Shown piece after piece: positions 5,617-48,578 of a DNA stretch of 64,000 nt (positions are counted from its first letter, which is position 1; the number at the start of each line of letters is the position of its first letter). Origin of the DNA: a virus. Below the pieces are notes generated by a model. It was given only the letters and a program-made list of their open reading frames with translations. It was not told the DNA's origin and ran no database searches. The stretch is from IMG/VR virus record IMGVR_UViG_3300030117_007501, positions 32,001-96,000 of that record. One strand, given 5' to 3'. Both the position numbers and the translations under genes were made by a program.

Positions 5617-6180
5617 ATGAGGCGCTGCCGAACAGAGGAAATGTGGAACGCGATAACGCACTCTTTTGGTTTAGGCATGTGCCTGTCTTTCTTCATGGTG
5701 GGAGACATCCAGACAAGAGTCATTACATCGATGCTATGTCTTACGTATTTGTTTTCGGTGTTGTATCACGGCACAGAGAAACAGTCAATAAAAAATACAT
5801 TTAGAATGATGGACATGGCTTCGATACATGCCACCATAGCATGCACTTCTGTCTCATATCTGATTATTGGCGACGCTGGTATCTTTCCGGCGATAGTGTG
5901 CCTTGTAGCCGGCGCAGCTGGAAGCCAGTTCGTAATAGCGAGCTATGGAACTACTTTCTTGGAAAGGACTGCCGTATTTTCGTTTGTAGCAAATGGTGTC
6001 TTGTGCTTGATGCTGATTGTCTTTTGTACATCATCGTTGTCTCCATACTTTGTTGTTGGATCCGTAGTGTACCTGTTGGGTTTGCGATTCTATGTACATG
6101 ATTACATAAGATTCTACCATACTGTGTGGCATGTTTTTGTATTGGTTGCGTCACTTATACATGTGCTCGGTACTATGTAA
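5617..6180 (+). CDS. Hemolysin III/PAQR family membrane protein
   Basis: EEMWNAITH, SVLYH, DMASI, HTVWHVFV motifs; multiple TM helices. Confidence 0.85.
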   Translation: MRRCRTEEMWNAITHSFGLGMCLSFFMVGDIQTRVITSMLCLTYLFSVLYHGTEKQSIKNTFRMMDMASIHATIACTSVSYLIIGDAGIFPAIVCLVAGAAGSQFVIASYGTTFLERTAVFSFVANGVLCLMLIVFCTSSLSPYFVVGSVVYLLGLRFYVHDYIRFYHTVWHVFVLVASLIHVLGTM

Positions 6181-6183
6181 TGT

Positions 6184-6381
6184 ATGGAAGAGTACGAAAT
6201 AGGGGATTTGGTAGTCTCGTATCTGTTCAACACGTCTATGCTTGAACCGGAGCTGTTGCAGTTTGGAGTCATAGTCAACGTCAATAGAAATCTCAGAGAC
6301 ATTATGGTTCTTGACAATGCTGGATACAAGAGATGGTACCCCTGTAGACGCTGGCGCATCTTAAGGAAGAAGAACACGTGA
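6184..6381 (+). CDS. Small IGDLV SH3-like protein
   Basis: YEIGDLV...GVIV pattern. Confidence 0.55.
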   Translation: MEEYEIGDLVVSYLFNTSMLEPELLQFGVIVNVNRNLRDIMVLDNAGYKRWYPCRRWRILRKKNT

Positions 6382-6463
6382 TGGATTTTTTGATATCGTA
6401 CGGACTGACGTTAGCTTTGTTAGTTCTGCTCGGAGAACTCTTTTTTGGTGTGTCAAAAAAGTC

Positions 6464-6492
6464 TTGACAATTTAAAAAAAATCATTTAAGAT
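6464..6492 (+). promoter_or_regulatory. sigma70-type promoter for uvsE
   Basis: TTGACA-17 nt-TAAGAT. Confidence 0.7.
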
Positions 6493-6516
6493 AATAAAAA
6501 AGTTTGGAGATTTCAT

Positions 6517-7443
6517 ATGAATTTTGGGTATGCATGTATCAACATGACGTTATCTGACTGTCCAAAGTCAAAGAGAGTAACGACAAACCGTTCGATGGTA
6601 AAGCGCACTTTCTTGTCGCGCGGGCTTCAATATGCTTCTGAGCTGGCATTGCAAAACGCAAAAGACTTGCTCAAAATACTAGAGTGGAATGAGAAAAACA
6701 ATATCAAGTTTTTTCGTATGTCGTCAGACATGTTCCCGTGGGCATCTGAGTACAGACTGTCTGACTTGCCAGACTACCATGACATAGCATACCATCTCGA
6801 CGTTGCTGGTGCATATGCGACTCGTAACGGACATAGGATTACTTGTCATCCCGGCCCATTCAATGTGCTCGGCTCCCCCCGCGCGGAAGTTGTAGAGAAA
6901 ACCATTCGTGAGCTGGAGTTGCACTCAGAAATCTTTGACTTGATGGGCTTCTATGATGCGACACCATACAACAAGATAAACATTCATGTCGGCGGCACTT
7001 ATGGCGGCGACTTTGGCAACACTGCCCTCCGCTGGTGCGAGAATTACTTAAGACTGTCTCCCAATTGTCAGAACCGACTGACACTGGAGAATGACGATAA
7101 GTCCAGCATGTGGAGTGTTAGAGACATCTATGACAGAATCTATAAGGTTGTTGGTGTGCCAATTGTGTTTGATTACCACCATCACAGATTTTGTACCGGT
7201 GGACAGACAGAAGAAGAGGCACTAAAGTTGGCAGCTTCTACGTGGAAGGGTGTCAAGCCTGTTGTGCATTTGTCAGAGTCTCGTGCTCTTGAGTTCGACG
7301 ACGCAACAATTCGTCCTCAAGCTCATTCAGATTTTATTAACAATCCTATAAAAAACTATGGACAAGAGCATGATATTATGTTAGAATGTAAGAAAAAAGA
7401 GTTAGCCCTTCTAAGGTACAGAAAGATAATGGAGAACTTATAA
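6517..7443 (+). CDS. uvsE: UV-damage endonuclease
   Basis: GYACIN, FFRMSSDMFPW, HPGPF, LENDDK, FDYHHH, HLSES, AHSD, MLECKKKE motifs. Confidence 0.93.
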   Translation: MNFGYACINMTLSDCPKSKRVTTNRSMVKRTFLSRGLQYASELALQNAKDLLKILEWNEKNNIKFFRMSSDMFPWASEYRLSDLPDYHDIAYHLDVAGAYATRNGHRITCHPGPFNVLGSPRAEVVEKTIRELELHSEIFDLMGFYDATPYNKINIHVGGTYGGDFGNTALRWCENYLRLSPNCQNRLTLENDDKSSMWSVRDIYDRIYKVVGVPIVFDYHHHRFCTGGQTEEEALKLAASTWKGVKPVVHLSESRALEFDDATIRPQAHSDFINNPIKNYGQEHDIMLECKKKELALLRYRKIMENL

Positions 7444-7664
7444 TGAATGTAGGAGACATGGTTCGTGCCCCAACCCCAGAGGGATGGAACGGATTTCCTT
7501 TGGAAAAGAATTACTATGGATGGGAAGGCAAGGTGGGCATACTCTTAAAGTTTGAAGACGCCTACGGAAAAAAGAATAGTCGCGCAAAGGTTCTCATCAG
7601 TGAAACAGGGCAAGTGTGTACTTTTGTAACTAACACTTTAACTGTGATTCAAAAAGCAGTATAA
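7443..7664 (+). CDS. Small NVGDMV SH3-like protein
   Basis: MNVGDMVR...GILL...LTVI. Confidence 0.6.
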   Translation: MNVGDMVRAPTPEGWNGFPLEKNYYGWEGKVGILLKFEDAYGKKNSRAKVLISETGQVCTFVTNTLTVIQKAV

Positions 7665-7673
7665 TATAGTAGA

Positions 7674-7750
<77 letters not shown>

Positions 7751-7752
7751 AT

Positions 7753-7825
7753 GCTGGCGTAGCTCAATTGGCAGAGCAGCTGATTTGTAATCAGCAGGTT
7801 GAGAGTTCGAGTCTCTCCGTCAGCT
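7753..7825 (+). tRNA. tRNA-Thr(TGT)
   Basis: Acceptor GCTGGCG/CGTCAGC, anticodon arm GCTGA-TTTGTAA-TCAGC; no encoded CCA. Confidence 0.95.
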
Positions 7826-7837
7826 TAGAGATGTTTT

Positions 7838-9309
7838 TTGATGATGTGTGAATTTGAAATAGGTGATTTGGTTCAGTTCAAGAACAACAAAGCACAAGTT
7901 GGTTTGATAATCGAAATCAGAGATTCTGCCGATAGCACGTTTCAACATCCATACGCCATCATTCTCTGGGCAAACACAGGTAAAAAATCAATTGAATTTA
8001 CTTCGGAGTTAACCTATGCTGAAAAAAGGTGATAAAGTTAGAATATATGATACCAACACCCACACTGAATGTTGTTATGGGGAGGGTGAAATACTCAGAG
8101 TCTTAACTAGAAAAAAGAGTAAGGCTTATAAACTATTGCACAAGGGACAAGTCCTTGTTTTAGATGAGAGGTTTTGGAGTTTAGAGAAATGCAAAAGTTA
8201 AAAGTATTGAAACCAGGAGACTTGGTTGTTCATCGACACAAGAAACTTAAGCATGGAGTGCTGATATCTGTGGACTCTCAACCCATTTTCGATGGCTCTG
8301 ATTGCGTGTGTCAAGTTCTCTTTGCGGGCAGTTCGCAATCAGTGCCAGCGTTGTTCTCGAACTTGGTAAGGTTCAACTCGTGAAAATTGGCGACTTAGTG
8401 ACGCTCTCTGCGTATGGCAAAAGCCTCAAGATGTTTGAGTGCATAGATAGGGACGACGTAGGGTTGATATATCACATGAATCTCAGTAGCTTCTTTGTAA
8501 GGTGGTGCAAGTCTGGCAAGCGCACATGGAAAGAGAGATTAGTCCGAAAAGATGTCAAATATGCAAAAAAGACATTTTGAGATAGGCGATATGGTTCTCT
8601 TCGACTCTCCTCTGCTGCCTTATGACAAAAAAATGGGGGTGGTTGTCGACAAGATACACTACATGCAGGAAACTCACTATCTTGAAATGCCGGCACACGG
8701 ACATCTATCAGAAGAATTGTTGCACAGTCAAGAGTATAGTTGCTGTGTTCTCCTACTCGGCACCTCAGAGAAAATAATGGTTAGATCGAAATGGATAAAA
8801 CTCGTTTCCCCAGTCAAAAAAACTTGACAATTCAAAAAAAATCTGATAAATTATAAAAACAATACAACTTCATCGGGAATAAAAAATGATAAAGAAAGGC
8901 GATTATGTTTCGTATGGTAGCGAGTTTCGTGCCATTGTTGTTGGGCATCCTCACACCGTTGAGAGGTTTGATTCCAATGGTTATGGAGGCTTGTTCGTTC
9001 CCGTTGCGAAGGTGCTTATAGTGCACACCCGTCGCCTCGCCGATTCAAAGTTTATTGGCAAAGAGAAGATAGCAAATTTACGCTCGCTAAGAAGGCTAAA
9101 GGCGTGAAGCTATGGGCGTGTACATGAGAGAGTCAGAGTTGCAAGTAGGCATGCTCATCCTGTACAACGGAGATCCTGCACTGGTGGTTAAGACATCCAG
9201 TGTGTGGGATGGTATGCTAACGCTCTTGAAGCGCGACGGAACCACAGCATACATTAATTCTCTATACATCAAGAGGGATTGGGTGCTTGGAAAAAATAAC
9301 AAAAAATGA
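7838..9309 (+). CDS. Run of small SH3-like ORFs: 7838-8032, 8016-8201, 8189-8383, 8380-8580, 8552-8827, 8886-9107, 9112-9309
   Basis: Each begins with a xxG(D/M)xV strand (IGDLV, KGDKV, PGDLV, IGDLV, IGDMV, KGDYV, VGMLI); 60-90 aa; mostly overlapping. Confidence 0.6.
8824..8852 (+). promoter_or_regulatory. sigma70-type promoter upstream of cassette array 1
   Basis: TTGACA-17 nt-TAAATT with TGn extension. Confidence 0.65.
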
Positions 9310-9473
9310 AACAGGGAGACTTGGTTAGATATATAGATGCAGTATCTCAACTTTTTGGCTTGGATGGCATCTACATTGTAAGAAGAGTCGAGCTTAAAAA
9401 TGATTGGGTGTTCGTCTATGGAGTCGACGTGCCAATCCAAATACAGGTTATGGAGGTTATAAGTGAGGCTTAA
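9306..9473 (+). CDS. SH3-like cassette protein (55 aa, absent from ORF track)
   Basis: MKQGDLVRY...QVMEVISEA*; ends in a junction variant. Confidence 0.7.
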   Translation: MKQGDLVRYIDAVSQLFGLDGIYIVRRVELKNDWVFVYGVDVPIQIQVMEVISEA

Positions 9474-9699
9474 GTTATTTTTCGTGGTACTCGCGAGTAT
9501 CGTCTTGTGTGGTTGTCCAGTAGAAGAAAACCTCTCTTCTTGCAGAAGAGTGATGGTGTGCGAGCAAGAAAAAGAAATGTATTGCGACAAGGCATTGAAC
9601 GGTTGCGGTGAGGACTGTCACTATTATGTGATGGAGAGCTGTTGGGAGAAGTGCGATGAAGGTGGGAGACTTGGTGAGGTGGGCGCCATCGTGCATTGA
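9463..9699 (+). CDS. Cys-rich putative lipoprotein starting at a junction
   Basis: Signal MRLKLFFVVLASIVLCGC followed by 7 further Cys. Confidence 0.6.
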   Translation: MRLKLFFVVLASIVLCGCPVEENLSSCRRVMVCEQEKEMYCDKALNGCGEDCHYYVMESCWEKCDEGGRLGEVGAIVH

Positions 9700-9847
9700 C
9701 GAGAGCGCATGGGAGAAATGGGTGGGAGTGATTGTAAGTATGCCGAAAGAAACTCCCCAAAGAGCTAGAGTCCTCTGGAACAAAGAAGGGGCGTTAGTAA
9801 CCCTTAGTTTTAAAAGAGACATGGAGGTAGTCAATGAAAGTCGGTGA
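9656..9847 (+). CDS. SH3-like cassette protein
   Basis: MKVGDLVRW...DMEVVNESR*. Confidence 0.8.
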   Translation: MKVGDLVRWAPSCIDESAWEKWVGVIVSMPKETPQRARVLWNKEGALVTLSFKRDMEVVNESR

Positions 9848-10043
9848 CTTAGTGAAGTTCGACCGTATTAACGGCCACACCCGCGATATCAATGACAAAG
9901 TGGCTCTCTATCTGGGTGAGGCTTTCATTCATCGCTACGACGGCGATGTCATCCAGAACCACAAGGTTCTGTTGCTTGGAGAATCAACGCCGAGAATCAT
10001 TGACGTTGGCTTGCTTAGGTGGATGAGGAGATACCCAGAATGA
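9834..10043 (+). CDS. SH3-like cassette protein
   Basis: MKVGDLVKF...; GGAGGT SD in junction. Confidence 0.8.
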   Translation: MKVGDLVKFDRINGHTRDINDKVALYLGEAFIHRYDGDVIQNHKVLLLGESTPRIIDVGLLRWMRRYPE

Positions 10044-10219
10044 AAGTCGGTGATTTAATAGCAGATAAAGAGTACACTGAAGATGTTGGCATCATTGTCT
10101 ATAAAGATGAGCATGGCGATGTTAATGCCTATAGGGTACTAACTCCCCAAGGTAAGCTGGATTATTTTTCAAAAGATTACATTGAAAATGACTGTGAGGT
10201 AATCAGTGAAAGTCGGTGA
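10040..10219 (+). CDS. SH3-like cassette protein
   Basis: MKVGDLIA...CEVISESR*; ATGA overlap with previous ORF. Confidence 0.8.
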   Translation: MKVGDLIADKEYTEDVGIIVYKDEHGDVNAYRVLTPQGKLDYFSKDYIENDCEVISESR

Positions 10220-10385
10220 TTTAGTGATGACTCCTCGGTATGGAACGTGGTATATTATCGTCGCAAAGCGTGAAGATCTTTCATCTTCTCACGGAGGACA
10301 AGTGTTCGACATTGTATCTACTGACTTAACGTATAGACAAGTGTTAAACGAAAGATTCTTGGAGGTGATAAGTGAAAGTCGGTGA
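10206..10385 (+). CDS. SH3-like cassette protein (59 aa, absent from ORF track)
   Basis: MKVGDLVMTPRYGTWYIIV...RFLEVISESR*. Confidence 0.8.
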   Translation: MKVGDLVMTPRYGTWYIIVAKREDLSSSHGGQVFDIVSTDLTYRQVLNERFLEVISESR

Positions 10386-10575
10386 TATTATTAAGTTAAC
10401 TCGGGGCACATATAATCACTTCAAACTGAAAAGTTATGTGGCTACCTTAATTAAAAAGCTACCAAGGGACGACGAATACGAATATGATTGGCTAGTCCTT
10501 GCTGACGGAAAATTCATCGCTCTCGGTAGACAAATAGAGTACAATGGTGCGGAGGTAATCAGTGAAAGTCGGTGA
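10372..10575 (+). CDS. SH3-like cassette protein
   Basis: MKVGDIIKL...AEVISESR*. Confidence 0.8.
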   Translation: MKVGDIIKLTRGTYNHFKLKSYVATLIKKLPRDDEYEYDWLVLADGKFIALGRQIEYNGAEVISESR

Positions 10576-10747
10576 TTTGGTAAAATATAACAATACCGCT
10601 TATCAATCAGAAGAAGTCGGTATCATTCTACAGAGGGACTCACTATATGACGAGGGTCGTCCACCTTATTCTTATAGGGTTCTTTGGAGAGATCATAACG
10701 AATCCAAGAGAAACTGGTACGGTTATGATGAGTTGAGAAAGCTGTGA
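10562..10747 (+). CDS. SH3-like cassette protein
   Basis: MKVGDLVKY...GIIL...YRVLW...ELRKL*. Confidence 0.8.
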   Translation: MKVGDLVKYNNTAYQSEEVGIILQRDSLYDEGRPPYSYRVLWRDHNESKRNWYGYDELRKL

Positions 10748-10896
10748 AAGTCGGTGATATTAGCGACTATGAGATGCAGAAACTGCGAGAGTTCGCACAA
10801 AAAAAGATAGTCAAAAATCTCAGAGAGATTAGCAAGCTGAAAGAAGAGATATACTGGTTGGCAAAGGAGAGGGACAAATATGCCAGAAAAGGATAA
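10744..10896 (+). CDS. 50-aa helical protein starting with the junction half-site
   Basis: MKVGDISDYEMQKLREFAQKKIVKNLREISKLKEEIYWLAKERDKYARKG*. Confidence 0.6.
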   Translation: MKVGDISDYEMQKLREFAQKKIVKNLREISKLKEEIYWLAKERDKYARKG

Positions 10897-12188
10897 ATCA
10901 ATTAGGGTTGGAGATTTGGTTGGAAAAAGATATAAGGGTTTGCCTGGAGTGCTTTGCCCTGGAATAGTAGTGAAAAAAGAAGCCGCATACCCAGGCAACC
11001 CCAATGACAGGTGTTTAGTAATGTTCTCTCATTGTCACCCGCGCGTCGCAACGCCGTTTGCCAAGAAGTATTGGCAACTTGAGAAAGACTTGGTGCTTTT
11101 GGCTCGATAAATTTATTTTTTTCTTGACTTAACTTAATATTTGTGTGATAATTATATCATTCTTTGGGAGGTTCCTACGTGAAACAGGAAGAGATTATAA
11201 AGTCGCTTTTAGATTTGAGTCCTTCGGATTCCGACATTTCCACTTGGCAAAGGGGGTTCTTGAAAAGCGTCCTTGAGCAAGTAAAAAGGGGTTTTACCCT
11301 TTCTCAGAACCAAGAGAAAATCTTGTCAGAAGTGTGTGTTCAGAATACCCCGGAAAGACTACAGTCAATACAGGATTGGAAAACGTCTTATTCAGCCAGC
11401 GAATATAAGCAGGAATCCTTTAGGGTTTGTGCGCACTATTACAACACGGTGGGATACTTTACGACTATAGTGGAGAACTTCTTTACAAAAAAGGATTATG
11501 TCCCCTCCGAGAAGGAGTACAAGAGGCTTTGTGACAATAAATATGCAAAGAGAGTCTTGGAGTCTCACTTCTCGGAACCTTTGTATCCAAAGGGAACGGT
11601 TGTGCAACTCAGAAAGGGACACAGGGTAAATCAGGACAACAAACTCTTGATGACTTTGAACAGGGAGCGTCTGAGCCCCGCTGCTGATTTCGCAGTTGTG
11701 CTAGAGAGCGACGCCCAACCGATACACCGATCAGCAAAGGGTTCAAAGATATACAAGATATTGCCCGTTGGCGTGTCCAAGTCGTATTATGTACATGAGT
11801 CAGATTTAAAGAGAGCAAGAGGAATCAAAAAATGATAGTATCTATATCATATTTGGTGTCGGAATCTGAAAGGGTGCATGTGAGAGCGCAACCTAGTGGC
11901 AAGTTCATGTTGAAGAGAAAGAGGAAAAATAGATATTCCACTAGTCCCGGTAGTTCTACAAAGACGTACTATGCAAAGGATTTTGTTGAGTATATGAAAC
12001 TCAGGGATCCCTACATAACGCTTGAGAATGGCACAAAGATGAGGGTTTACCGTGGGGGCAACTCCAGCGATGAGGTTATAGAGACGATTTGCATTATCGA
12101 ATCACACGACGAAAAAGCCAAAAAAAGAGTTGGAAAAGTTTTAATACCACCGCATGACTACCCTGATTCGGATTACTTAGGTTGGTAA
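10880..12188 (+). CDS. ORFs 10880-11110 (RVGDLV SH3-like), 11179-11835 (C-terminal SH3-like PKGTVV...ESDLK), 11832-12188
   Basis: Abutting ORFs; GGAG-type SDs before 10880 and 11179. Confidence 0.6.
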
Positions 12189-12195
12189 AAAAAAC

Positions 12196-12224
12196 TTGAC
12201 TTTTTGATAAAAATCATTTAACAT
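12196..12224 (+). promoter_or_regulatory. sigma70-type promoter
   Basis: TTGACT-17 nt-TAACAT. Confidence 0.6.
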
Positions 12225-12254
12225 GTAAAGACAATAACGGCTAGGAAATCTAAA

Positions 12255-13115
12255 ATGTCATACAACGGAACAGTTCATTGTAGTTGGTGTGGTACGCGGG
12301 GGCACAACAAGCTCAGTTGTCCCTCCAGAAGAGAGGCAGCAAAAAGCAATCAATGGCTAAAGAGGGAGTTGGCGCGAGAAGACGCCATGCGCAAAGCGTC
12401 TGTCTCGAATAGGACATGCTCATATTGCAAGCAAAAAGGGCACAACCGACGAAAATGTCCGGTGATTTCTAGGGACAGAGGTATTATCCTTAAGGATACT
12501 ATTCGTGCTCGTAAGAAGCTGCTGGAATCCATGCAGGAAAATGGACTTGGAAAAGGCGCTCTGGTTAAGACGTACCATAACAATGATTTTAACTATCCTA
12601 TCCTTCACTTGGTTGAATCGATAGATTGGAGAGCATTGGACGACGCTGCGCTGTATTCAGACAGAGCTGTCGCAACCCGCTCTTATGCTCGTCGTCCAGT
12701 GAAGACTCGAATTGCCAATGTTGACTCCACTAGGGGGATGGATACACGAAATGGTTGGTATCGCGCACCAACGGTTGGACAGGTTAGTCACTTGAGTATG
12801 TTCAATTTGGCTAGTATCTTGTCAGGCGCTATAGCCGTGAGTGCTAAAGGATATTACGACAGGGGTTCGAGCGAAACGAAAACTAACATAAATGATACTC
12901 CACACAGAGCGACAGTAGAGTGTTGGACGCAGACAAATCCAGCAAAAGACATGCCAAAAGATTGGCTTTCTCCACTGACACTCAGCCAACCTCAGTCCAT
13001 GTTTTGGCACTTCACTGTCCCCGACAGGGGCGACGAGTACGACAAGAGGAGGCTCTTCACCGCATGGAAGGAGCGAGAGAGCGAGACTGGAGAAGTAATT
13101 GAGGAGTTGTTATGA
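12255..13115 (+). CDS. Protein with two CCHC zinc knuckles
   Basis: CSWCGTRGHNKLSC and CSYCKQKGHNRRKC (CX2CX4HX4C). Confidence 0.75.
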   Translation: MSYNGTVHCSWCGTRGHNKLSCPSRREAAKSNQWLKRELAREDAMRKASVSNRTCSYCKQKGHNRRKCPVISRDRGIILKDTIRARKKLLESMQENGLGKGALVKTYHNNDFNYPILHLVESIDWRALDDAALYSDRAVATRSYARRPVKTRIANVDSTRGMDTRNGWYRAPTVGQVSHLSMFNLASILSGAIAVSAKGYYDRGSSETKTNINDTPHRATVECWTQTNPAKDMPKDWLSPLTLSQPQSMFWHFTVPDRGDEYDKRRLFTAWKERESETGEVIEELL

Positions 13116-13903
13116 GTGGTGTTAATCCATTTGAGGAGCATCCTGAAACTCCGAAAGAAGAACTAGAATCGGCAAAAAAAACCTTGACAAAGGAAAGGAT
13201 ATTTGTTATTCTAGATGAAGAAATAAGAAAAGCCGAAACCCGCCCGTCTTCTATATGGGGCTTAACCAGAGAAGACATCATTGAGGCTATTGAAAATGTC
13301 AAAGAGAAAATAGAGGAGGCTTAGATGTCTAGACTGCTTGCAAACCTTCCGCGTATGACGCGAGTAGAATGGAACAACCTGGCAAAGAACAGGTTTGTCG
13401 ACGACGAGATTCAAGTGTGGATAGCCAAGAACGGACACATTCAAGCGAGGTACTATCTAGCAGAGAATGAGTCTTTGTGCGAAGAGGCTATCGACATCAT
13501 CCTCAATGGTAGATCAAACATGGCAAAGGCTACACTAGTAACTACTGGATTGGTTGCCGATGGTGATGTGATTAGGAATATCTATGATTCCTGTAAGTCG
13601 AGACTAGCACACTGGAGAGTCAACAGTTTCTTCGTCCGAGCCTGGAGAGGCGGATGGGTTAACGGCACGCCTTCGGACGTCCTAGAGGATATTTACGACA
13701 GATACAAGGAGAGGTTGGCTAATTCAGGTGGAGGACTCTATAGTTATTATAGTACCGCTCTGCCCATAAACCTTGCCAGTCATCCTAACTGTAGTTTGAA
13801 GTTGGCTATTCAATTAAGCCAGCACGATAATTCAAATGTTTCTGCTGCCGGAAGAGATGCGCTTGTGGCTATCAGCAGAAGGCAAGATGACTCAAAAAGT
13901 TAA
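13112..13903 (+). CDS. Hypotheticals 13112-13324 and 13325-13903 (helical, LRV-repeat-like)
   Basis: LAKN/LAEN/LASHPN repeats in the second ORF. Confidence 0.55.
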
Positions 13904-13991
13904 ATTTAAATTTGACAAATTAATTTTTTTATGAGATGATATAAACACATCGAACGAACCAATAACTGCTAATTACTTTAGGAGATATATC

Positions 13992-15065
13992 ATGGCAGTT
14001 GACTTTAAGACTTTTTCCAATGTTGTCAAGCACGTAACGGCAGTAAAGAAGCCGGTACTTTTGCGTGGACGTCACGGCATTGGCAAATCTACCGTAGTCT
14101 ATCAGTACGCTGATAGCATTGGCATGCCTATCGTCGAGCGACGCGCATCGCAGATGACTGAGGGAGATTTAGTGGGACTGCCCTCAATTGAGAACAGCAG
14201 TACGCAGTTCAACCCACCAGACTGGTTCAAGCAGGCGTGCGATGAGCCTGTGGTTCTGTTTCTGGACGAGGTTGACAGGGCAACGCTCGAAGTCCGTCAG
14301 GGTATTTTCGAGCTTACTGATAGCCGCAAGCTGAATGGGCACATTCTTCACCCGGATACGCTTGTCTTCGCCGCTGTAAATGGCGGCGAGCACGGTGAGC
14401 AGTATCAGGTTGGAGAGATGGATCCAGCTGAGCTTGACAGGTGGACTGTGTTCGATATTGAGCCGACGACAGAGGATTGGCTAACTTGGGCTACAGGCAA
14501 GGTTCACGGCATGGTGTGGGACTTCATTAACCATAACCGTAATCACCTTGAGCATCTCGACGACTACGAGCCAAACAAGGTTTATCCTTCTCGACGTTCG
14601 TGGGAGCGACTGAGTGAGTGCCTCTCTGAGAGTGGTGTCTTGGATGCCGAAGAAACTTCGGTTCTCTATACTCTGACGAGCGCCTTTGTTGGCTTCGAAG
14701 CAGCGGTAGCATTTAACGACTTTGTTGCCAACTACGAGAAGCAGGTGTCTGTTGAGGATATCCTCGTGCACGGTAAGATTGAGAGAACAAAGGACTTCGG
14801 TATCAACGAGCACACTGCGCTCATTGACAAGTTCGACTCAGCCGCGTCGTTTGAGGAGGAGCTTGAGCAGGACAAGATTGACAATCTTGCTCGATACTTC
14901 TTGAACCTCCCTTCCGAGGTTGCGATGAAGTTGTGGACTGTGTTGGGTTCTGGTGAGATTAATAACACGATTAAGCTGCACCAGGCAACTGTTGACGGCA
15001 AGTCTGTCAGCGATTACATTGTTACGATTCTTGCTGGAGAGCAAGAAGAAGAGAAGGGGAGTTGA
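13992..15065 (+). CDS. MoxR-like AAA+ ATPase
   Basis: Walker A GRHGIGKS, Walker B LFLDEVDR, sensor FAAVN, DPAELDR. Confidence 0.9.
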   Translation: MAVDFKTFSNVVKHVTAVKKPVLLRGRHGIGKSTVVYQYADSIGMPIVERRASQMTEGDLVGLPSIENSSTQFNPPDWFKQACDEPVVLFLDEVDRATLEVRQGIFELTDSRKLNGHILHPDTLVFAAVNGGEHGEQYQVGEMDPAELDRWTVFDIEPTTEDWLTWATGKVHGMVWDFINHNRNHLEHLDDYEPNKVYPSRRSWERLSECLSESGVLDAEETSVLYTLTSAFVGFEAAVAFNDFVANYEKQVSVEDILVHGKIERTKDFGINEHTALIDKFDSAASFEEELEQDKIDNLARYFLNLPSEVAMKLWTVLGSGEINNTIKLHQATVDGKSVSDYIVTILAGEQEEEKGS

Positions 15066-15066
15066 T

Positions 15067-15288
15067 ATGAGGATGTTTTTACTGTCTGCGTCTCTGTTCT
15101 TGGCATCGGGGTGTTCTCTGGGAACTAACCCCTCCTATGTAAAGCTGAATGACAGAGGTGGTTGTGGCGACTTCATTCTTAAGCAGGCGTTTAGGGACGA
15201 CATCCTTTGCGTGAAGTCGAAAAAGAAGAAGAGCGGCGTCGACTGCTTTTACGTACAGAACGGCAGTCGAGTTATCTCTGTTCGATAA
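15067..15288 (+). CDS. Small lipoprotein
   Basis: Lipobox LASGC after a hydrophobic stretch. Confidence 0.6.
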   Translation: MRMFLLSASLFLASGCSLGTNPSYVKLNDRGGCGDFILKQAFRDDILCVKSKKKKSGVDCFYVQNGSRVISVR

Positions 15289-15362
15289 AATATTTCTTGA
15301 CTTCTTAAAAAAAGTCTGTTATTCTTATTACATAATCAAAAACAACTGAGAGAGAAATCGAG

Positions 15363-16595
15363 ATGGAAGAGAAAAATCACTTCGATTTGAACCTGCACAT
15401 GGCTAGGTTGCTCATGGACGAACCGTTCTTTGCAGCAATCTCCCGACGTGTGGACAAGCGTCCACATACCGGGATACCAACAGCAGGAGTTAGAGTCAAT
15501 CCTGATACAGCTCAGTTTGAGATGCTGTATAATCCTGAGTTCTTTCACAAGTTGACTGACGATGAGCGCATCGATGTGCTTAAGCACGAGTTCTATCACA
15601 TTGTCTTTCTCCACGTCACTGACAGGATGCCTGTCGTAGAGGGAGATAAGAAGATGACAAAGTTGTGGAATATTGCGACAGACTTGGCTATCAACAGCAA
15701 TCTTCACAACTTGCCAGAGGGCTGTTGTAAGCCAGGTGTCCCTGATACCCCTTTTGCTGATTTGCCTTCCGGCAAGAGCGCGGAGTGGTATCTCAAAAAT
15801 ATGCCACCGATGCCAAAAAAGAAGTCGAACCCGAATGGAGAGCCAAACGGAGAGGGCGGCAACGGTTCCGGGCAAGGCGAGCCCGGAGAAACCGAGTACG
15901 ACTCTTTCGACGATCACAGTGGTTGGGGTGAGGTTTCGGAAGATGCCAAGGAGATTGCCAAGGAGAGGCTTAAGGACATCATTAGGAAAGCGGCAGATGA
16001 GGCATCAAAGTCCAACAGTTGGGGCTCTGTCTCTGCTTCATGTAGAGAGGAGATTCTCAAGGGAATCAAGAGTACCCTGGACTGGCGAAAAGTGCTCAGG
16101 TACTTCATAAAGACGTCTCAGAAGTCCAGCAGGAAGTCGAGTATTAGGCGTATCAACCGTCGTTACCCGTACGTTCATGCTGGAAAAAAGTCAGACAGGG
16201 TTGCAAGGGTTGCAATCTCTATCGATCAGTCTGGCTCGGTGTCTAACAAGATGCTTGCTGCTTTCTTTGCGGAACTGAACAAGTTGTCTGAGATTGCAGA
16301 GTTTACGGTGATTCCGTTTGATACTGTGGTTGTCGAAGACAAGGTGTTTGACTGGAGAAAGGGAGAGAATCGCAAGTGGGAGCGCGTATCGTGTGGAGGA
16401 ACATGCTTTAACGCTCCTACGAAGTGGGTTAACGAGCGTAGTTATGATGGACACATTGTCTTGACGGACTTGATGGCACCGAAACCAGTGCCTTCCAAGG
16501 CTCAGAGGATGTGGATAACTACTGAGTATTATGCTCAGCGCCCATACTTCACTACTAACGAGAGGGTTATCGCGATACCAGACAAGGATATGTGA
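15363..16595 (+). CDS. Putative metallopeptidase plus VWA-like protein (AAA+ partner)
   Basis: HEFYH zincin motif, NIATDLAIN, MIDAS-like IDQSGS, GGT, LTD. Confidence 0.85.
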   Translation: MEEKNHFDLNLHMARLLMDEPFFAAISRRVDKRPHTGIPTAGVRVNPDTAQFEMLYNPEFFHKLTDDERIDVLKHEFYHIVFLHVTDRMPVVEGDKKMTKLWNIATDLAINSNLHNLPEGCCKPGVPDTPFADLPSGKSAEWYLKNMPPMPKKKSNPNGEPNGEGGNGSGQGEPGETEYDSFDDHSGWGEVSEDAKEIAKERLKDIIRKAADEASKSNSWGSVSASCREEILKGIKSTLDWRKVLRYFIKTSQKSSRKSSIRRINRRYPYVHAGKKSDRVARVAISIDQSGSVSNKMLAAFFAELNKLSEIAEFTVIPFDTVVVEDKVFDWRKGENRKWERVSCGGTCFNAPTKWVNERSYDGHIVLTDLMAPKPVPSKAQRMWITTEYYAQRPYFTTNERVIAIPDKDM

Positions 16596-17296: not shown

Positions 17297-17325
17297 TTGA
17301 TTTTTAAAAAAAAGAAATATATAAT
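17297..17325 (+). promoter_or_regulatory. sigma70-type promoter heading cassette array 2
   Basis: TTGATT-17 nt-TATAAT. Confidence 0.75.
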
Positions 17326-17350: not shown

Positions 17351-17557
17351 ATGAAAGTTGGTGACTTGGTTCAATGGAGCGACACCAGCATTGCCTGGCA
17401 CCTCGCTAAAGGTTACCCTGTGCAGGATTTTCTTCACCATCGTCAACGAGGGATAATTTTCAGCGAGAACAAGAAGTATGTTTTCGTGTATTGGGGCGAC
17501 GGAGAAAGAATGGCAGAAGAGCGGGATTGGCTGGAGGTTGTCAGTGAAAGTAGGTGA
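17351..17557 (+). CDS. SH3-like cassette protein
   Basis: MKVGDLVQW...WLEVVSESR*. Confidence 0.8.
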   Translation: MKVGDLVQWSDTSIAWHLAKGYPVQDFLHHRQRGIIFSENKKYVFVYWGDGERMAEERDWLEVVSESR

Positions 17558-17702
17558 TTTGGTGAGACACAAGCGTAGAAACTGGAACGCTCTTATCGTG
17601 ACTGTTGATCAGCCTCGAAGACACATTAAGATTCTCGATGAGGAGGGCAGTGTGTTCTGGGAAAGAATGAGAGATTACGAGGTTATCAGTGAAAGTCGGT
17701 GA
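17544..17702 (+). CDS. SH3-like cassette protein
   Basis: MKVGDLVRH...DYEVISESR*. Confidence 0.8.
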   Translation: MKVGDLVRHKRRNWNALIVTVDQPRRHIKILDEEGSVFWERMRDYEVISESR

Positions 17703-17907
17703 TTTAGTTATAACTAAGGCATCTATCGGAGACGGGAATCGTCGGCTTGCGCTGCGAGAAGGCGTAGGCGTCTTGTTTCAAGCTGATTACAACCTAATGA
17801 TACTCTGGCCAAATGGCTTCATAGAGAACTCATGCGTCTATTTTGAGCACGAATTGGAGGTTGTCAGTGAAAGTCGGCGATTTAGTAAAATACAGGATGT
17901 ATCATAA
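17689..17907 (+). CDS. SH3-like cassette protein with junction stop lost (TGA>CGA)
   Basis: MKVGDLVIT...LEVVSESR-RFSKIQDVS*. Confidence 0.8.
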   Translation: MKVGDLVITKASIGDGNRRLALREGVGVLFQADYNLMILWPNGFIENSCVYFEHELEVVSESRRFSKIQDVS

Positions 17908-18049
17908 CAACCTACAGTCACTCTTGGGAATTGTTTTGCGCACGAGTAGGGACAAAGAGAGAGTAAGAGTTCTTTGGAATCGAATCGACAGAAATGATGA
18001 CGTGATGGATTGGGTAGAAGATTTGGAGGTTGTCAGTGCAAGTCGGTGA
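17867..18049 (+). CDS. SH3-like cassette protein
   Basis: MKVGDLVKY...DLEVVSASR*. Confidence 0.8.
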   Translation: MKVGDLVKYRMYHNNLQSLLGIVLRTSRDKERVRVLWNRIDRNDDVMDWVEDLEVVSASR

Positions 18050-18227
18050 TTTGGTTAAGTGGACTGATGGACATGGCGAAGAGTTTTACGCCCTAGTGGT
18101 TAAACGTGATGGCTGGGCGACACTAATAAAGTGGACTTCTTCCGGCGAAGTAGAAGACGCTGACTACTATATCGAAAGCGACGTCGCAGAGAATGAAGTA
18201 TGGGAGGTAATCAGTGAAGCTCGGTGA
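18036..18227 (+). CDS. SH3-like cassette protein
   Basis: MQVGDLVKW...WEVISEAR*. Confidence 0.8.
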   Translation: MQVGDLVKWTDGHGEEFYALVVKRDGWATLIKWTSSGEVEDADYYIESDVAENEVWEVISEAR

Positions 18228-18411
18228 TATGGTTCAGCCGCTTGGCTCATGCTCTGGCATGCTCGGCGCTGTTCGGTGCAAACTAGCACTGGTTGTGGAG
18301 AAGGTTAACCCACACCATGATCAGGTTAAGATTGCCTGCCTATGTGGTTCTAAGTGGGCAATGAAACATAATGTACGCTCTATAGAAAAAAGAGAGGATA
18401 TCTGGGAATGA
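18214..18411 (+). CDS. SH3-like cassette protein (last of array 2)
   Basis: MKLGDMVQP... Confidence 0.75.
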   Translation: MKLGDMVQPLGSCSGMLGAVRCKLALVVEKVNPHHDQVKIACLCGSKWAMKHNVRSIEKREDIWE

Positions 18412-19166: not shown

Positions 19167-19238
19167 GGAGCGCTGGCGCAATGGTAGCGCATCGGACTTT
19201 TAATCCGCTGGTTCAGGGTTCGAGTCCCTGGCGCTCCA
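19167..19238 (+). tRNA. tRNA-Lys(TTT)
   Basis: Acceptor GGAGCGC/GCGCTCC, anticodon loop CTTTTAA, T-arm CAGGG-TTCGAGT-CCCTG. Confidence 0.92.
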
Positions 19239-19425
19239 CATACACGAGGAGAATGGTGAATGGGGCTTTCGAGCGTAGCTAGTGTGAGGAGATTGGCGAA
19301 CATGTGGGTTGATTTATCACCCAAGAGACAAGACGAACTCTTAAGCGAACTTGATGCCCCACTGAGAGAATCAGTTGTAGAGAGAATGAGAGAGATAAAG
19401 AATGAAAGAAAGAGGAGCAGCAAAG

Positions 19426-24682: not shown

Positions 24683-26941
24683 ATGAAAATCACAGAATCA
24701 AAACTGCGCTCTATCATTAACGAAGAAATCAAAAAAGCGCTGGTTAAAAATATCGAAGAAGGAAGCTTTGATCCCGGACATCTTAAGACTGTCCCTTCGG
24801 GCGTTGATCCCGCCGTTGGCGAGTGGGTTATCGACGAGCTTAACCTTATATGGAGTAAAATAAAGGAGCTGCAAAGCAGAGCTTAATTATGAAAATTAAA
24901 AAAGAACAACTAGATCAAATTATTGCTGAAGAAATCAATAGTGTTGTCGAAGAGAGTGAAAACCTCGAAGAAGGCTTTTTTAGTACTATCGCCGGGCTTG
25001 GCTTGGCTTATTGGCTTGTCAAAACTTTACTGGGTAAAAGAATCGCTGCGCAGATAGAAGAAGATCCTGAACTTCGAGACGCTGTTGATCAAGGCAACAA
25101 AGAAATTGAAAATGCAATGAACCAAATTTCATCTCCTGAGTCTCGTCAACGCCTTAAAGACGATGTTTCCGGTTTGTTGAGTGATATTGCCGCTGCAATC
25201 AAGAAGAGGCTCGGCTAAGATGACGTCATCGCGACTTCAAGCTATAATTGAGGAAGAAATCGGCAAGTATCTCATTGAAGCCGGTGCTTCTCAACTTATC
25301 GGCGATTACAATATCGATGTTATAACTGAAGACAAAGAATGCATATACGCATTAAACGTTGTCAAGAAGTATGTCGATCGACGCGGAGGATGGCAGTTTA
25401 GTGAACCTGAATACGCTCAAATAGGTAATATATTATCTGAGGCTATCTCTCTCATCAAAACTATAATCGACAAAAAGGAGGCTGCTAAGCCTCCTGTTTC
25501 CCCTCCACCTTTAAGGATGCCTGCTGATCCTGATGCGCAGGTGGCTCCTCTGCGTCTGACGCGTTCAACGAAATTCGCTTAATTAATTTAATTAACTTAT
25601 AGTTATTTCCATGTCAACATTGCTAATAATTATTAACTGTGCTATAATGTCCATATGGACTGCTTGCTTGGTATACACACACATCAAGCTTGTCAATAGC
25701 GCTATTAAGCAATTCGAAGAGCAAAACAACAATCTAACTAAAGAACTTGAAAAGCAAAGAAAAACAAAAACATTCAACATGCGTAATACAACTATTGCCG
25801 AACCTGAAGGCAAAGAGTTTTATTATTAAGGAAGCACACCATGAAGATTGAAATTGGTACCCTCATAACCATCATCACCCTAAGCATTGCTATCGGTGGA
25901 GCATATTATTCAATGTCTGATAATATCTCTGATCTCGAGACTAAAGTCGCCATTTTGGAAAAAACAATCAAAAAGTGCAAATGTGGGCATAAAAAAATTT
26001 CCCCGCGAAAAAAATCAAAATTTCGCGACTAATTACAACATAACTTAAGGAACTCATTAATGAAACTCAAAACTTCATATATTAAAAAAATTATCCGCGA
26101 AGAAATCGATTCGAATCTTCCCGACTCCAACAGGTGGCGAGACTTTTGGCTAAATGGGCCGGGTGGGCAATTTGCTGATTCTGATGATACCACCCGGCGC
26201 ATTGTCGAGCTTTTTGTTCAAGACTTGCGCAAAATGACTGCGCATGCGGATGCTGTTATTGAGAAGTCTGAGTGGAGTAGCGGGCCCGACAATGCTGCTT
26301 TCTTTCGCATGCGTGAGTTTATGAGAAGCAAGTGGTTTGGCAAAACGGGGATTCTGTCCACCAACATGCCACCCCGCTCTTCGGAGTTTCTCCAGAACTA
26401 TAAAGATTGGGGCATGCCATCGTGGGGAGAGAGTCGTTCCGCAGCTCAGTGGGCTCAGACAGACTTTTTTCACAATTGGTTGGGAGAATAACATGTGCAT
26501 TATATGTATTGAGCTTGAAAAAGACAAACTCACAGCTTCAGAGGCGTTTCGAAACTTTTGGGAAATGAAGGACTCAATTGAAGAAGAGCATATCGAGGAA
26601 GTTACCGAAGCTATACTTACAGCATTTCACGAAGAACTTGGAGAAGAACAATGAAAAAAGAAGATATAATTAAAATGATTCAAGAGGAAGTAACTCAAAT
26701 TTTGAATGAACATTCTCCTGATGACTTCTCAGATCTGGAAGGGCGAGAGGAGACTAGCTGGGAACCAGATGAGGTTGGTGATGTTATACAAGCTGGAGTG
26801 ACTGCTGTTGTTGAAGCTCTTTACTCATATGATCCAAGCCAGGATGCTCTCGATGCATTAGAATTACAGGTTAAAGAAGCTTTGTCATCCATTAGGGGCG
26901 GAGTTATCGAAGACATTGTGTCAGGTAAAGCGAGGATATGA
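24683..26941 (+). CDS. Small ORFs 24683-24886, 24889-25218, 25220-25582, 26060-26491, 26651-26941 (class-A leader) and 25611-25829, 25841-26032 (TM), 26493-26654
   Basis: Shared MKITxxxLxxIIxEE-type N-termini in five ORFs. Confidence 0.65.
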
Positions 26942-27192
26942 AGTGGGGCGTTAAAATATTAACGCTTTTATTTATTTTCTCCTTCCTGCCTATCTCTGCG
27001 TCTGCTCAAAATAAAGATGCAAAAACAAAATTTTATAACTTCGACGACTTACTTATCGACGGTAAAGTGCAGAAACCAAAAGTACTTTGGGTGGATGCAC
27101 GCCAGAAAGTCAAATTCGAAAAGCTTTTAAAGCTAAAAAAAGATTTCATGCCCAAGCTCTTAGGCACAAGAAAAGACATGTCTCTTCGATAG
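26938..27192 (+). CDS. CglF/GltF-like (myxobacterial gliding motility) exported protein
   Basis: Signal peptide then YNFDDLLIDGKVQKP...KFEKLLKLKKDFMPKL, matching the recalled CglF pattern DF-D--IEG---KP...F--LI--R-NF-PEL. Confidence 0.65.
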   Translation: MKWGVKILTLLFIFSFLPISASAQNKDAKTKFYNFDDLLIDGKVQKPKVLWVDARQKVKFEKLLKLKKDFMPKLLGTRKDMSLR

Positions 27193-43358: not shown

Positions 43359-43661
43359 GGGGGTGATCAGGTTTCGACAGGGTAAGGATAATAATACGTG
43401 CAAGGATGTGTGGGTAGGCACAGTAAAAATACCCAAAACTATAAATGCAAACGATGATATCGAAGCAATGGGGGAGGTGGCATTAGCCGCATAACCCAGA
43501 GGGTTTTCCAGATACCCTTCTAACCCAACATCTGGATTTGTTATATTTGATAATTTACATATTTGTGACTTATAGCTGTCTGAAGCTAGAATCAGACTAA
43601 CCTTGTGAATGACGTATTATTTGAGATGTTCTGGACGCGGGTTCGACTCCCGCCACCTCCA
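43359..43661 (+). ncRNA. ssrA: tmRNA
   Basis: Acceptor GGGGGTG/CACCTCC-A with G3.U; TTCGAC; T-arm GCGGG-TTCGACT-CCCGC; tag ORF 43447-43494 ANDDIEAMGEVALAA* after ATAAAT. Confidence 0.95.
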
Positions 43662-43671
43662 CTAACTTTTC

Positions 43672-48501: not shown

Positions 48502-48578
48502 GGACCTCTAGCTCAATTGGTTAGAGCATCCGGCTCATAACCGGCAGGTTCACGGTTCAAGTCCGTGGGGGTCCACCA
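48502..48578 (+). tRNA. tRNA with CAT anticodon, most likely tRNA-Ile2
   Basis: Acceptor GGACCTC/GGGGTCC, loop CTCATAA, encoded CCA; lacks initiator features; 9 nt after tilS. Confidence 0.85.

Follow-up and report, generated by a model that had tools for sequence, protein, structure and literature searches.

The window analysed here is a 64,000-nucleotide stretch of an uncultured marine phage genome of about 180 kb, represented by a virus record of 158 kb that is 87% complete (IMGVR_UViG_3300030117_007501). It carries two arrays of very small genes in which successive genes are joined by one shared junction of about 30 nt. The first array, on the plus strand, contains ORFs A (9656-9847, 63 aa), B (9834-10043, 69 aa), C (10040-10219, 59 aa), D (10206-10385, 59 aa), E (10372-10575, 67 aa), F (10562-10747, 61 aa), and G (10744-10896, 50 aa). 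Full junctions are found at 9822-9853 (A|B, with a Shine-Dalgarno (SD) sequence, the start of B at 9834 and the stop of A at 9845-9847), 10194-10225 (C|D), 10360-10391 (D|E), and 10550-10581 (E|F), and they produce a 14-nt overlap between neighboring genes. Half-sites at 10040-10059 (B|C) and 10744-10763 (F|G) keep only the right half, which contains the core, and give a 4-nt overlap. Start-to-start distances are 178, 206, 166, 166, 190, and 182. A degenerate 24-nt pattern derived from the junction has nine matches in the window and none in 100 shuffled sequences. Four of these matches are in the first array (9824, 10196, 10362, and 10552) and five (17534-18204) belong to a second array, not included in the initial annotation, of six units at 17351-18411 (+), with starts at 17351, 17544, 17689, 17867, 18036, and 18214. 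In this second array, the junction at 17867 has lost the upstream stop, so that unit J reads on to 17907. Sigma70-like promoter matches, based on consensus only, are found upstream of each array, at 8824-8852 (+), the inferred driver of the first array, and at 17297-17325 (+).

The initial annotation described the first array as gene cassettes joined by a repeat combining SD, start and stop, and its junctions are confirmed. However, some points need to be corrected. The element at 9451-9473 (+), listed as a variant junction, is a left half only. The next gene does not begin with MKVGD and is kept in place in the closest distinct relative (locus L119, about 80% nucleotide identity), and the longest exact match of this element to other junctions is 8, so that it is not a mobile junction. 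ORF G is not a barrel protein but a helical ORF that has acquired the MKVGD start, since its orthologue in L119 lacks it; it forms the right anchor of the array. The cores of the units share no DNA similarity, as noted initially, but they are remote protein relatives, with a shared Gly-hydrophobic strand and a shared Trp. Finally, the observation that units ending in a full junction are 1 mod 3 long is correct but is an arithmetic consequence of the 14-nt overlap rather than separate evidence.

Upstream of the array, a run of small related ORFs with degenerate starts (7443-9473 (+), 3-8 exact letters) has kept its order in L119 and serves as an internal control; unit A itself has a degenerate start junction. 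Between the two arrays, a conserved block (11179-16595 (+)) encodes a 218-aa protein with a predicted helical domain and a C-terminal SH3 domain (11179-11835), a protein with two invariant CCHC zinc knuckles (12255-13115), and a MoxR-type AAA ATPase together with a DUF2201 metallopeptidase-vWA protein (13992-16595), the latter pair being consistently next to the arrays across the clade. No cultured phage is close. The junction occurs in at least 118 IMG/VR stretches, always on one strand per genome. Moreover, among 81 loci retrieved via the neighboring AAA ATPase, that is, without using the junction, 65 hold two or more cores. Several near-complete relatives begin or end inside the arrays, as expected if populations are mixed there.

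Comparison with relatives shows that the units move. In L119, every flanking gene is syntenic, including the run of small genes with degenerate starts, yet the first array shares only C and E, the latter in a different neighborhood, as blocks that start and end at junctions, and the second array shares only its last unit. Near-identical strains (90-100% identity) were then retrieved through exact protein matches. In L212, B is replaced by a 358-bp unit encoding a hydrophobic 114-aa ORF (L212 2643-3001, with relatives in L007, L126, L137, L206, and L210) and F is precisely absent, giving the order A'-[358 bp]-C-D-E-G, although this sequence has an N gap at C|D. In L214, B is absent and a 169-bp unit is present between D and E (A'-C-D-[169 bp]-E-F). 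B is also absent in L215 (A'-C-D). In L217 and L218, F is followed by a different unit, of which only 42 nt are seen past the junction. In the second array, L224 and L226 keep the stop at 17867 and carry there an extra 181-bp unit that is 88% identical to a unit of L119. Independently, Logan contigs from two sequencing runs (X3 and X4, one study, two samples) skip F exactly, with 15 shared letters and 98-99% identity on each side, and go from 91% identity in A to 100% in C across a replaced B, thus forming a recent mosaic. Elsewhere in the clade, L008 and L010 are 100% identical except for one 176-bp unit, and L026 and L050 share single-unit blocks in permuted order. One assembly (ERZ839095) holds both F followed by G (L230) and F followed by a new unit (L217), suggesting two haplotypes in one sample.

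For the first array, the six crossover intervals that could be mapped are 9-20 shared letters long and all lie in junctions, which cover 15% of the array, though the events are not fully independent. Because these data come from assemblies only, and because repeats confuse assemblers, artefactual joining had to be considered. This explanation, like that of an ancient tandem duplication with stable order, is now very unlikely. The shared letters are shorter than the 31-mers used by Logan, variant contigs carry their own flanking substitutions and novel intact units, and independent assemblies agree (L212 with X3/X4, L214 with L215, and L224 with L226). In addition, the best relative of a unit is adjacent in only 2 of 1165 cases and is in another genome in 804, which argues against tandem duplication as the source of neighbors.

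Controls at the scale of the clade agree with these strain comparisons, although the genomes are related and the pair counts, not being independent, are descriptive. Among AAA-anchored loci, for genes 75-97% identical in amino acid sequence, the downstream neighbor is kept in 6 of 121 comparisons across junctions, as compared to 201 of 295 for other small genes and 22 of 23 for family members with degenerate starts. Retention is 4, 6, 21, 17, and 34% for 0, 1, 2, 3-4, and 5 or more mismatches to the 15-nt core, respectively. Local order is inverted in 29% of unit pairs, vs. 10% of other small-gene pairs and 6% of large-gene pairs. In pairs sharing only the upstream unit or only the downstream unit (72 and 90 pairs), alleles up to position 0 travel with the upstream unit and alleles from +15 with the downstream one, with a gradual change in between. 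In contrast, units are not shared between distant genomes much more than other small genes are, so that long-range transfer is modest. Overall, the central inference of the initial annotation, that recombination between junctions would excise, insert or reorder whole genes, is supported.

Is the junction more than an SD sequence combined with dual coding? In part, it is exactly that. Wobble positions -5 and +20 vary freely, and the flanks encode strands 5 and 1 of the predicted barrel. It could therefore be argued that the array is merely an expanded small-gene family in a plastic region, whose conserved coding ends happen to be the only homology, and that turnover at junctions is a by-product without selection for mobility. 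The same breakpoints would be seen whether or not mobility is selected, and selection for intact genes alone would also push surviving breakpoints to gene ends. However, base +8, where both choices keep Val and Arg, is a C in 254 of 277 cases (92%), against 41% in N-terminal control codons. Where no 14-nt overlap exists, as at half-sites, the Lys, Val, and Gly codons still follow the consensus (81, 65, and 67% against 64, 22, and 51%), in loci not chosen by the pattern. Thus, the core is homogenized as DNA, and dual coding alone does not explain its conservation. Moreover, non-barrel cargo is captured between cores, as seen with the hydrophobic ORF of L212 and with ORF G. We consider the by-product view unlikely, but recombination-driven homogenization can give this pattern without any host-level benefit, so that this view overlaps in mechanism with the one we favor and differs from it in purpose.

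Which machinery carries out the exchange was then addressed by profile searches. No tyrosine recombinase (PF00589) was detected in 25 records, nor in the 19 complete genomes, whereas the control was positive in 14 of 14; a host-encoded enzyme is not excluded. No resolvase (PF00239), reverse transcriptase (PF00078), IS110 (PF01548), Erf (PF04404), or RecT (PF03837) was detected in 20 records, 19 of them complete. RecA was found in 25 of 25. Folding suggested a hairpin, at best -3.6 kcal/mol, formed by a weak imperfect palindrome in the core, but no covariation of its arms was observed in 807 junctions (odds ratio 0.98, p=1), and mutual information between the two halves is at null level. This independence of the two halves is what frequent crossing-over between them would give. 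Five of the six crossover intervals overlap at about 0..+8, but one lies at -15..-5, outside the core. In-place duplications of the core, 21 and 24 nt long and giving a doubled N-terminus, exist in L036 and L068.

With moderate confidence, we therefore favor homology-guided exchange by general machinery, either RecA/UvsX-type strand invasion in recombination-dependent replication or template switching on repeats of 9-20 nt, largely between co-infecting relatives and with no dedicated integrase. In this view, exchange also homogenizes the core, and junctions that mutate become frozen. Any crossover between two in-register junctions gives the upstream gene a complete end and stop, and the downstream gene an SD sequence and a start, so recombinants keep intact genes. 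Identical runs between junctions are mostly 10-20 nt, which is probably short for efficient exchange by RecA-family enzymes and leaves room for a helper; a low rate may be offset because every product is viable. Alternatively, a dedicated but unrecognized sequence-specific factor, from the phage or the host, may bind the 15-nt core. The strong fixation of the core across a diverse clade, the enrichment of recombined junctions in the consensus core, the five intervals overlapping at 0..+8, and the presence of two unknown genes beside the arrays in 60-62 of 81 loci would fit with such a factor. However, no known recombinase family was found in the records searched, the palindrome shows no covariation, and one crossover falls outside the core. 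This possibility appears less likely but remains open. Of the two neighboring genes, the 218-aa protein (60 of 81 loci) has invariant Tyr88, Tyr93, and Asn120 in its helical domain. Its model matched only SH3-type domains and no recombinase, although its N-terminal part, with no clear fold match, was barely tested; a search for related loci with this protein returned nothing. The knuckle protein (62 of 81 loci) matched only unnamed viral clusters and could, speculatively, bind or anneal single strands. A role of this block in shuffling is not shown.

Concerning the proteins, unit C is confidently predicted (pLDDT 91) to fold as a five-stranded barrel of the SH3/Tudor/KOW type, and the other units are assigned to this type by sequence pattern, in agreement with the SH3-like fold proposed initially. 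Structural comparison returned Bacillus subtilis YorP, PsaE, the KOW domains of NusG/Spt5, and the C-terminal Tudor domain of UvrD (TM 0.6-0.7, Z 5.5-6.8), without a standout. Searches against Pfam (including Phage_tudor, PF24144), PHROGs, and PADLOC gave nothing above cut-off. The cores evolve under purifying selection (dN/dS 0.12, 118 independent pairs), so they are working proteins. The sample contains 876 distinct units in 584 families, with a Chao1 estimate of about 1800, and the system accounts for a very large pool of unannotated marine phage ORFans. Position behind sigma70-like matches, small size, and fast turnover suggest early host-interaction modules. The proposal that the barrels are variable protein- or nucleic-acid-binding modules for host takeover or counter-defence, kept diverse by host-specific selection, remains tentative and is the weakest step of our interpretation, the anti-defence role put forward initially being unproven. 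A stronger version, in which a dedicated phage-encoded factor recombines the dual-coding site to assemble arrays from an open pool of over a thousand small binding-protein families, giving an integron-like, antibody-like library against host proteins, is not excluded but is unlikely.

The system works like the PeSL (promoter-early stem-loop) cassettes of the T4-type phages RB49 and phi1 (Arbiol et al., 2010, PMC2839356), in which single small genes of a plastic region are gained, lost, or replaced by recombination between repeated boundary elements, with neighbors kept intact and no dedicated recombinase found. However, the PeSL element is intergenic, about 100 bp long, carries a promoter and a terminator hairpin, and flanks unrelated ORFans; mini-circles were shown for it, whereas circles are not shown here. 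Here, the linker is about 30 nt with a 15-nt core, is fully coding in two frames, has no supported hairpin and no promoter (only weak 9/12 matches near two junctions, at chance level), and the cargo is nearly all one hyperdiverse fold. The arrays are also an unusually clean natural case of the Botstein-Campbell linker, or boundary-sequence, model of phage mosaicism (discussed in PMC2839356 and PMC3029335). Such boundaries are said to be unidentifiable at most mosaic joints, whereas here one boundary is repeated up to about 20 times per locus and is built from the proteins' own termini. The likeness to integrons and CRISPR arrays suggested initially holds for layout only. As in integrons, single-gene units lie in an apparently promoter-driven array with a repeat at each joint, and decayed joints go with fixed units, but no tyrosine recombinase was found in the records searched, there is no covarying hairpin and no single crossover site, and the joint lies inside coding sequence. 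As compared to CRISPR arrays, the units are protein genes of 133-220 bp under purifying selection and the repeats vary at wobble positions. We found no description of this family or junction in a partial survey of the literature.

With respect to the host, matches in GTDB were scattered over unrelated MAGs and were read as mis-binned phage contigs. A CglF-like gliding-motility protein encoded at 26938-27192 (NF033764, E 7e-11, below cut-off) hints at a Myxococcota-type host, but this is a lead only. The window also contains a UvdE UV-damage endonuclease and a hydrophobic membrane protein, haemolysin-III-like as judged by eye, upstream of the first array (5617-7443), as well as a tmRNA and four tRNA genes (Arg, Thr, Lys, and Met) at 43359-43662, 7674-7825, 19167-19239, and 48502-48578.
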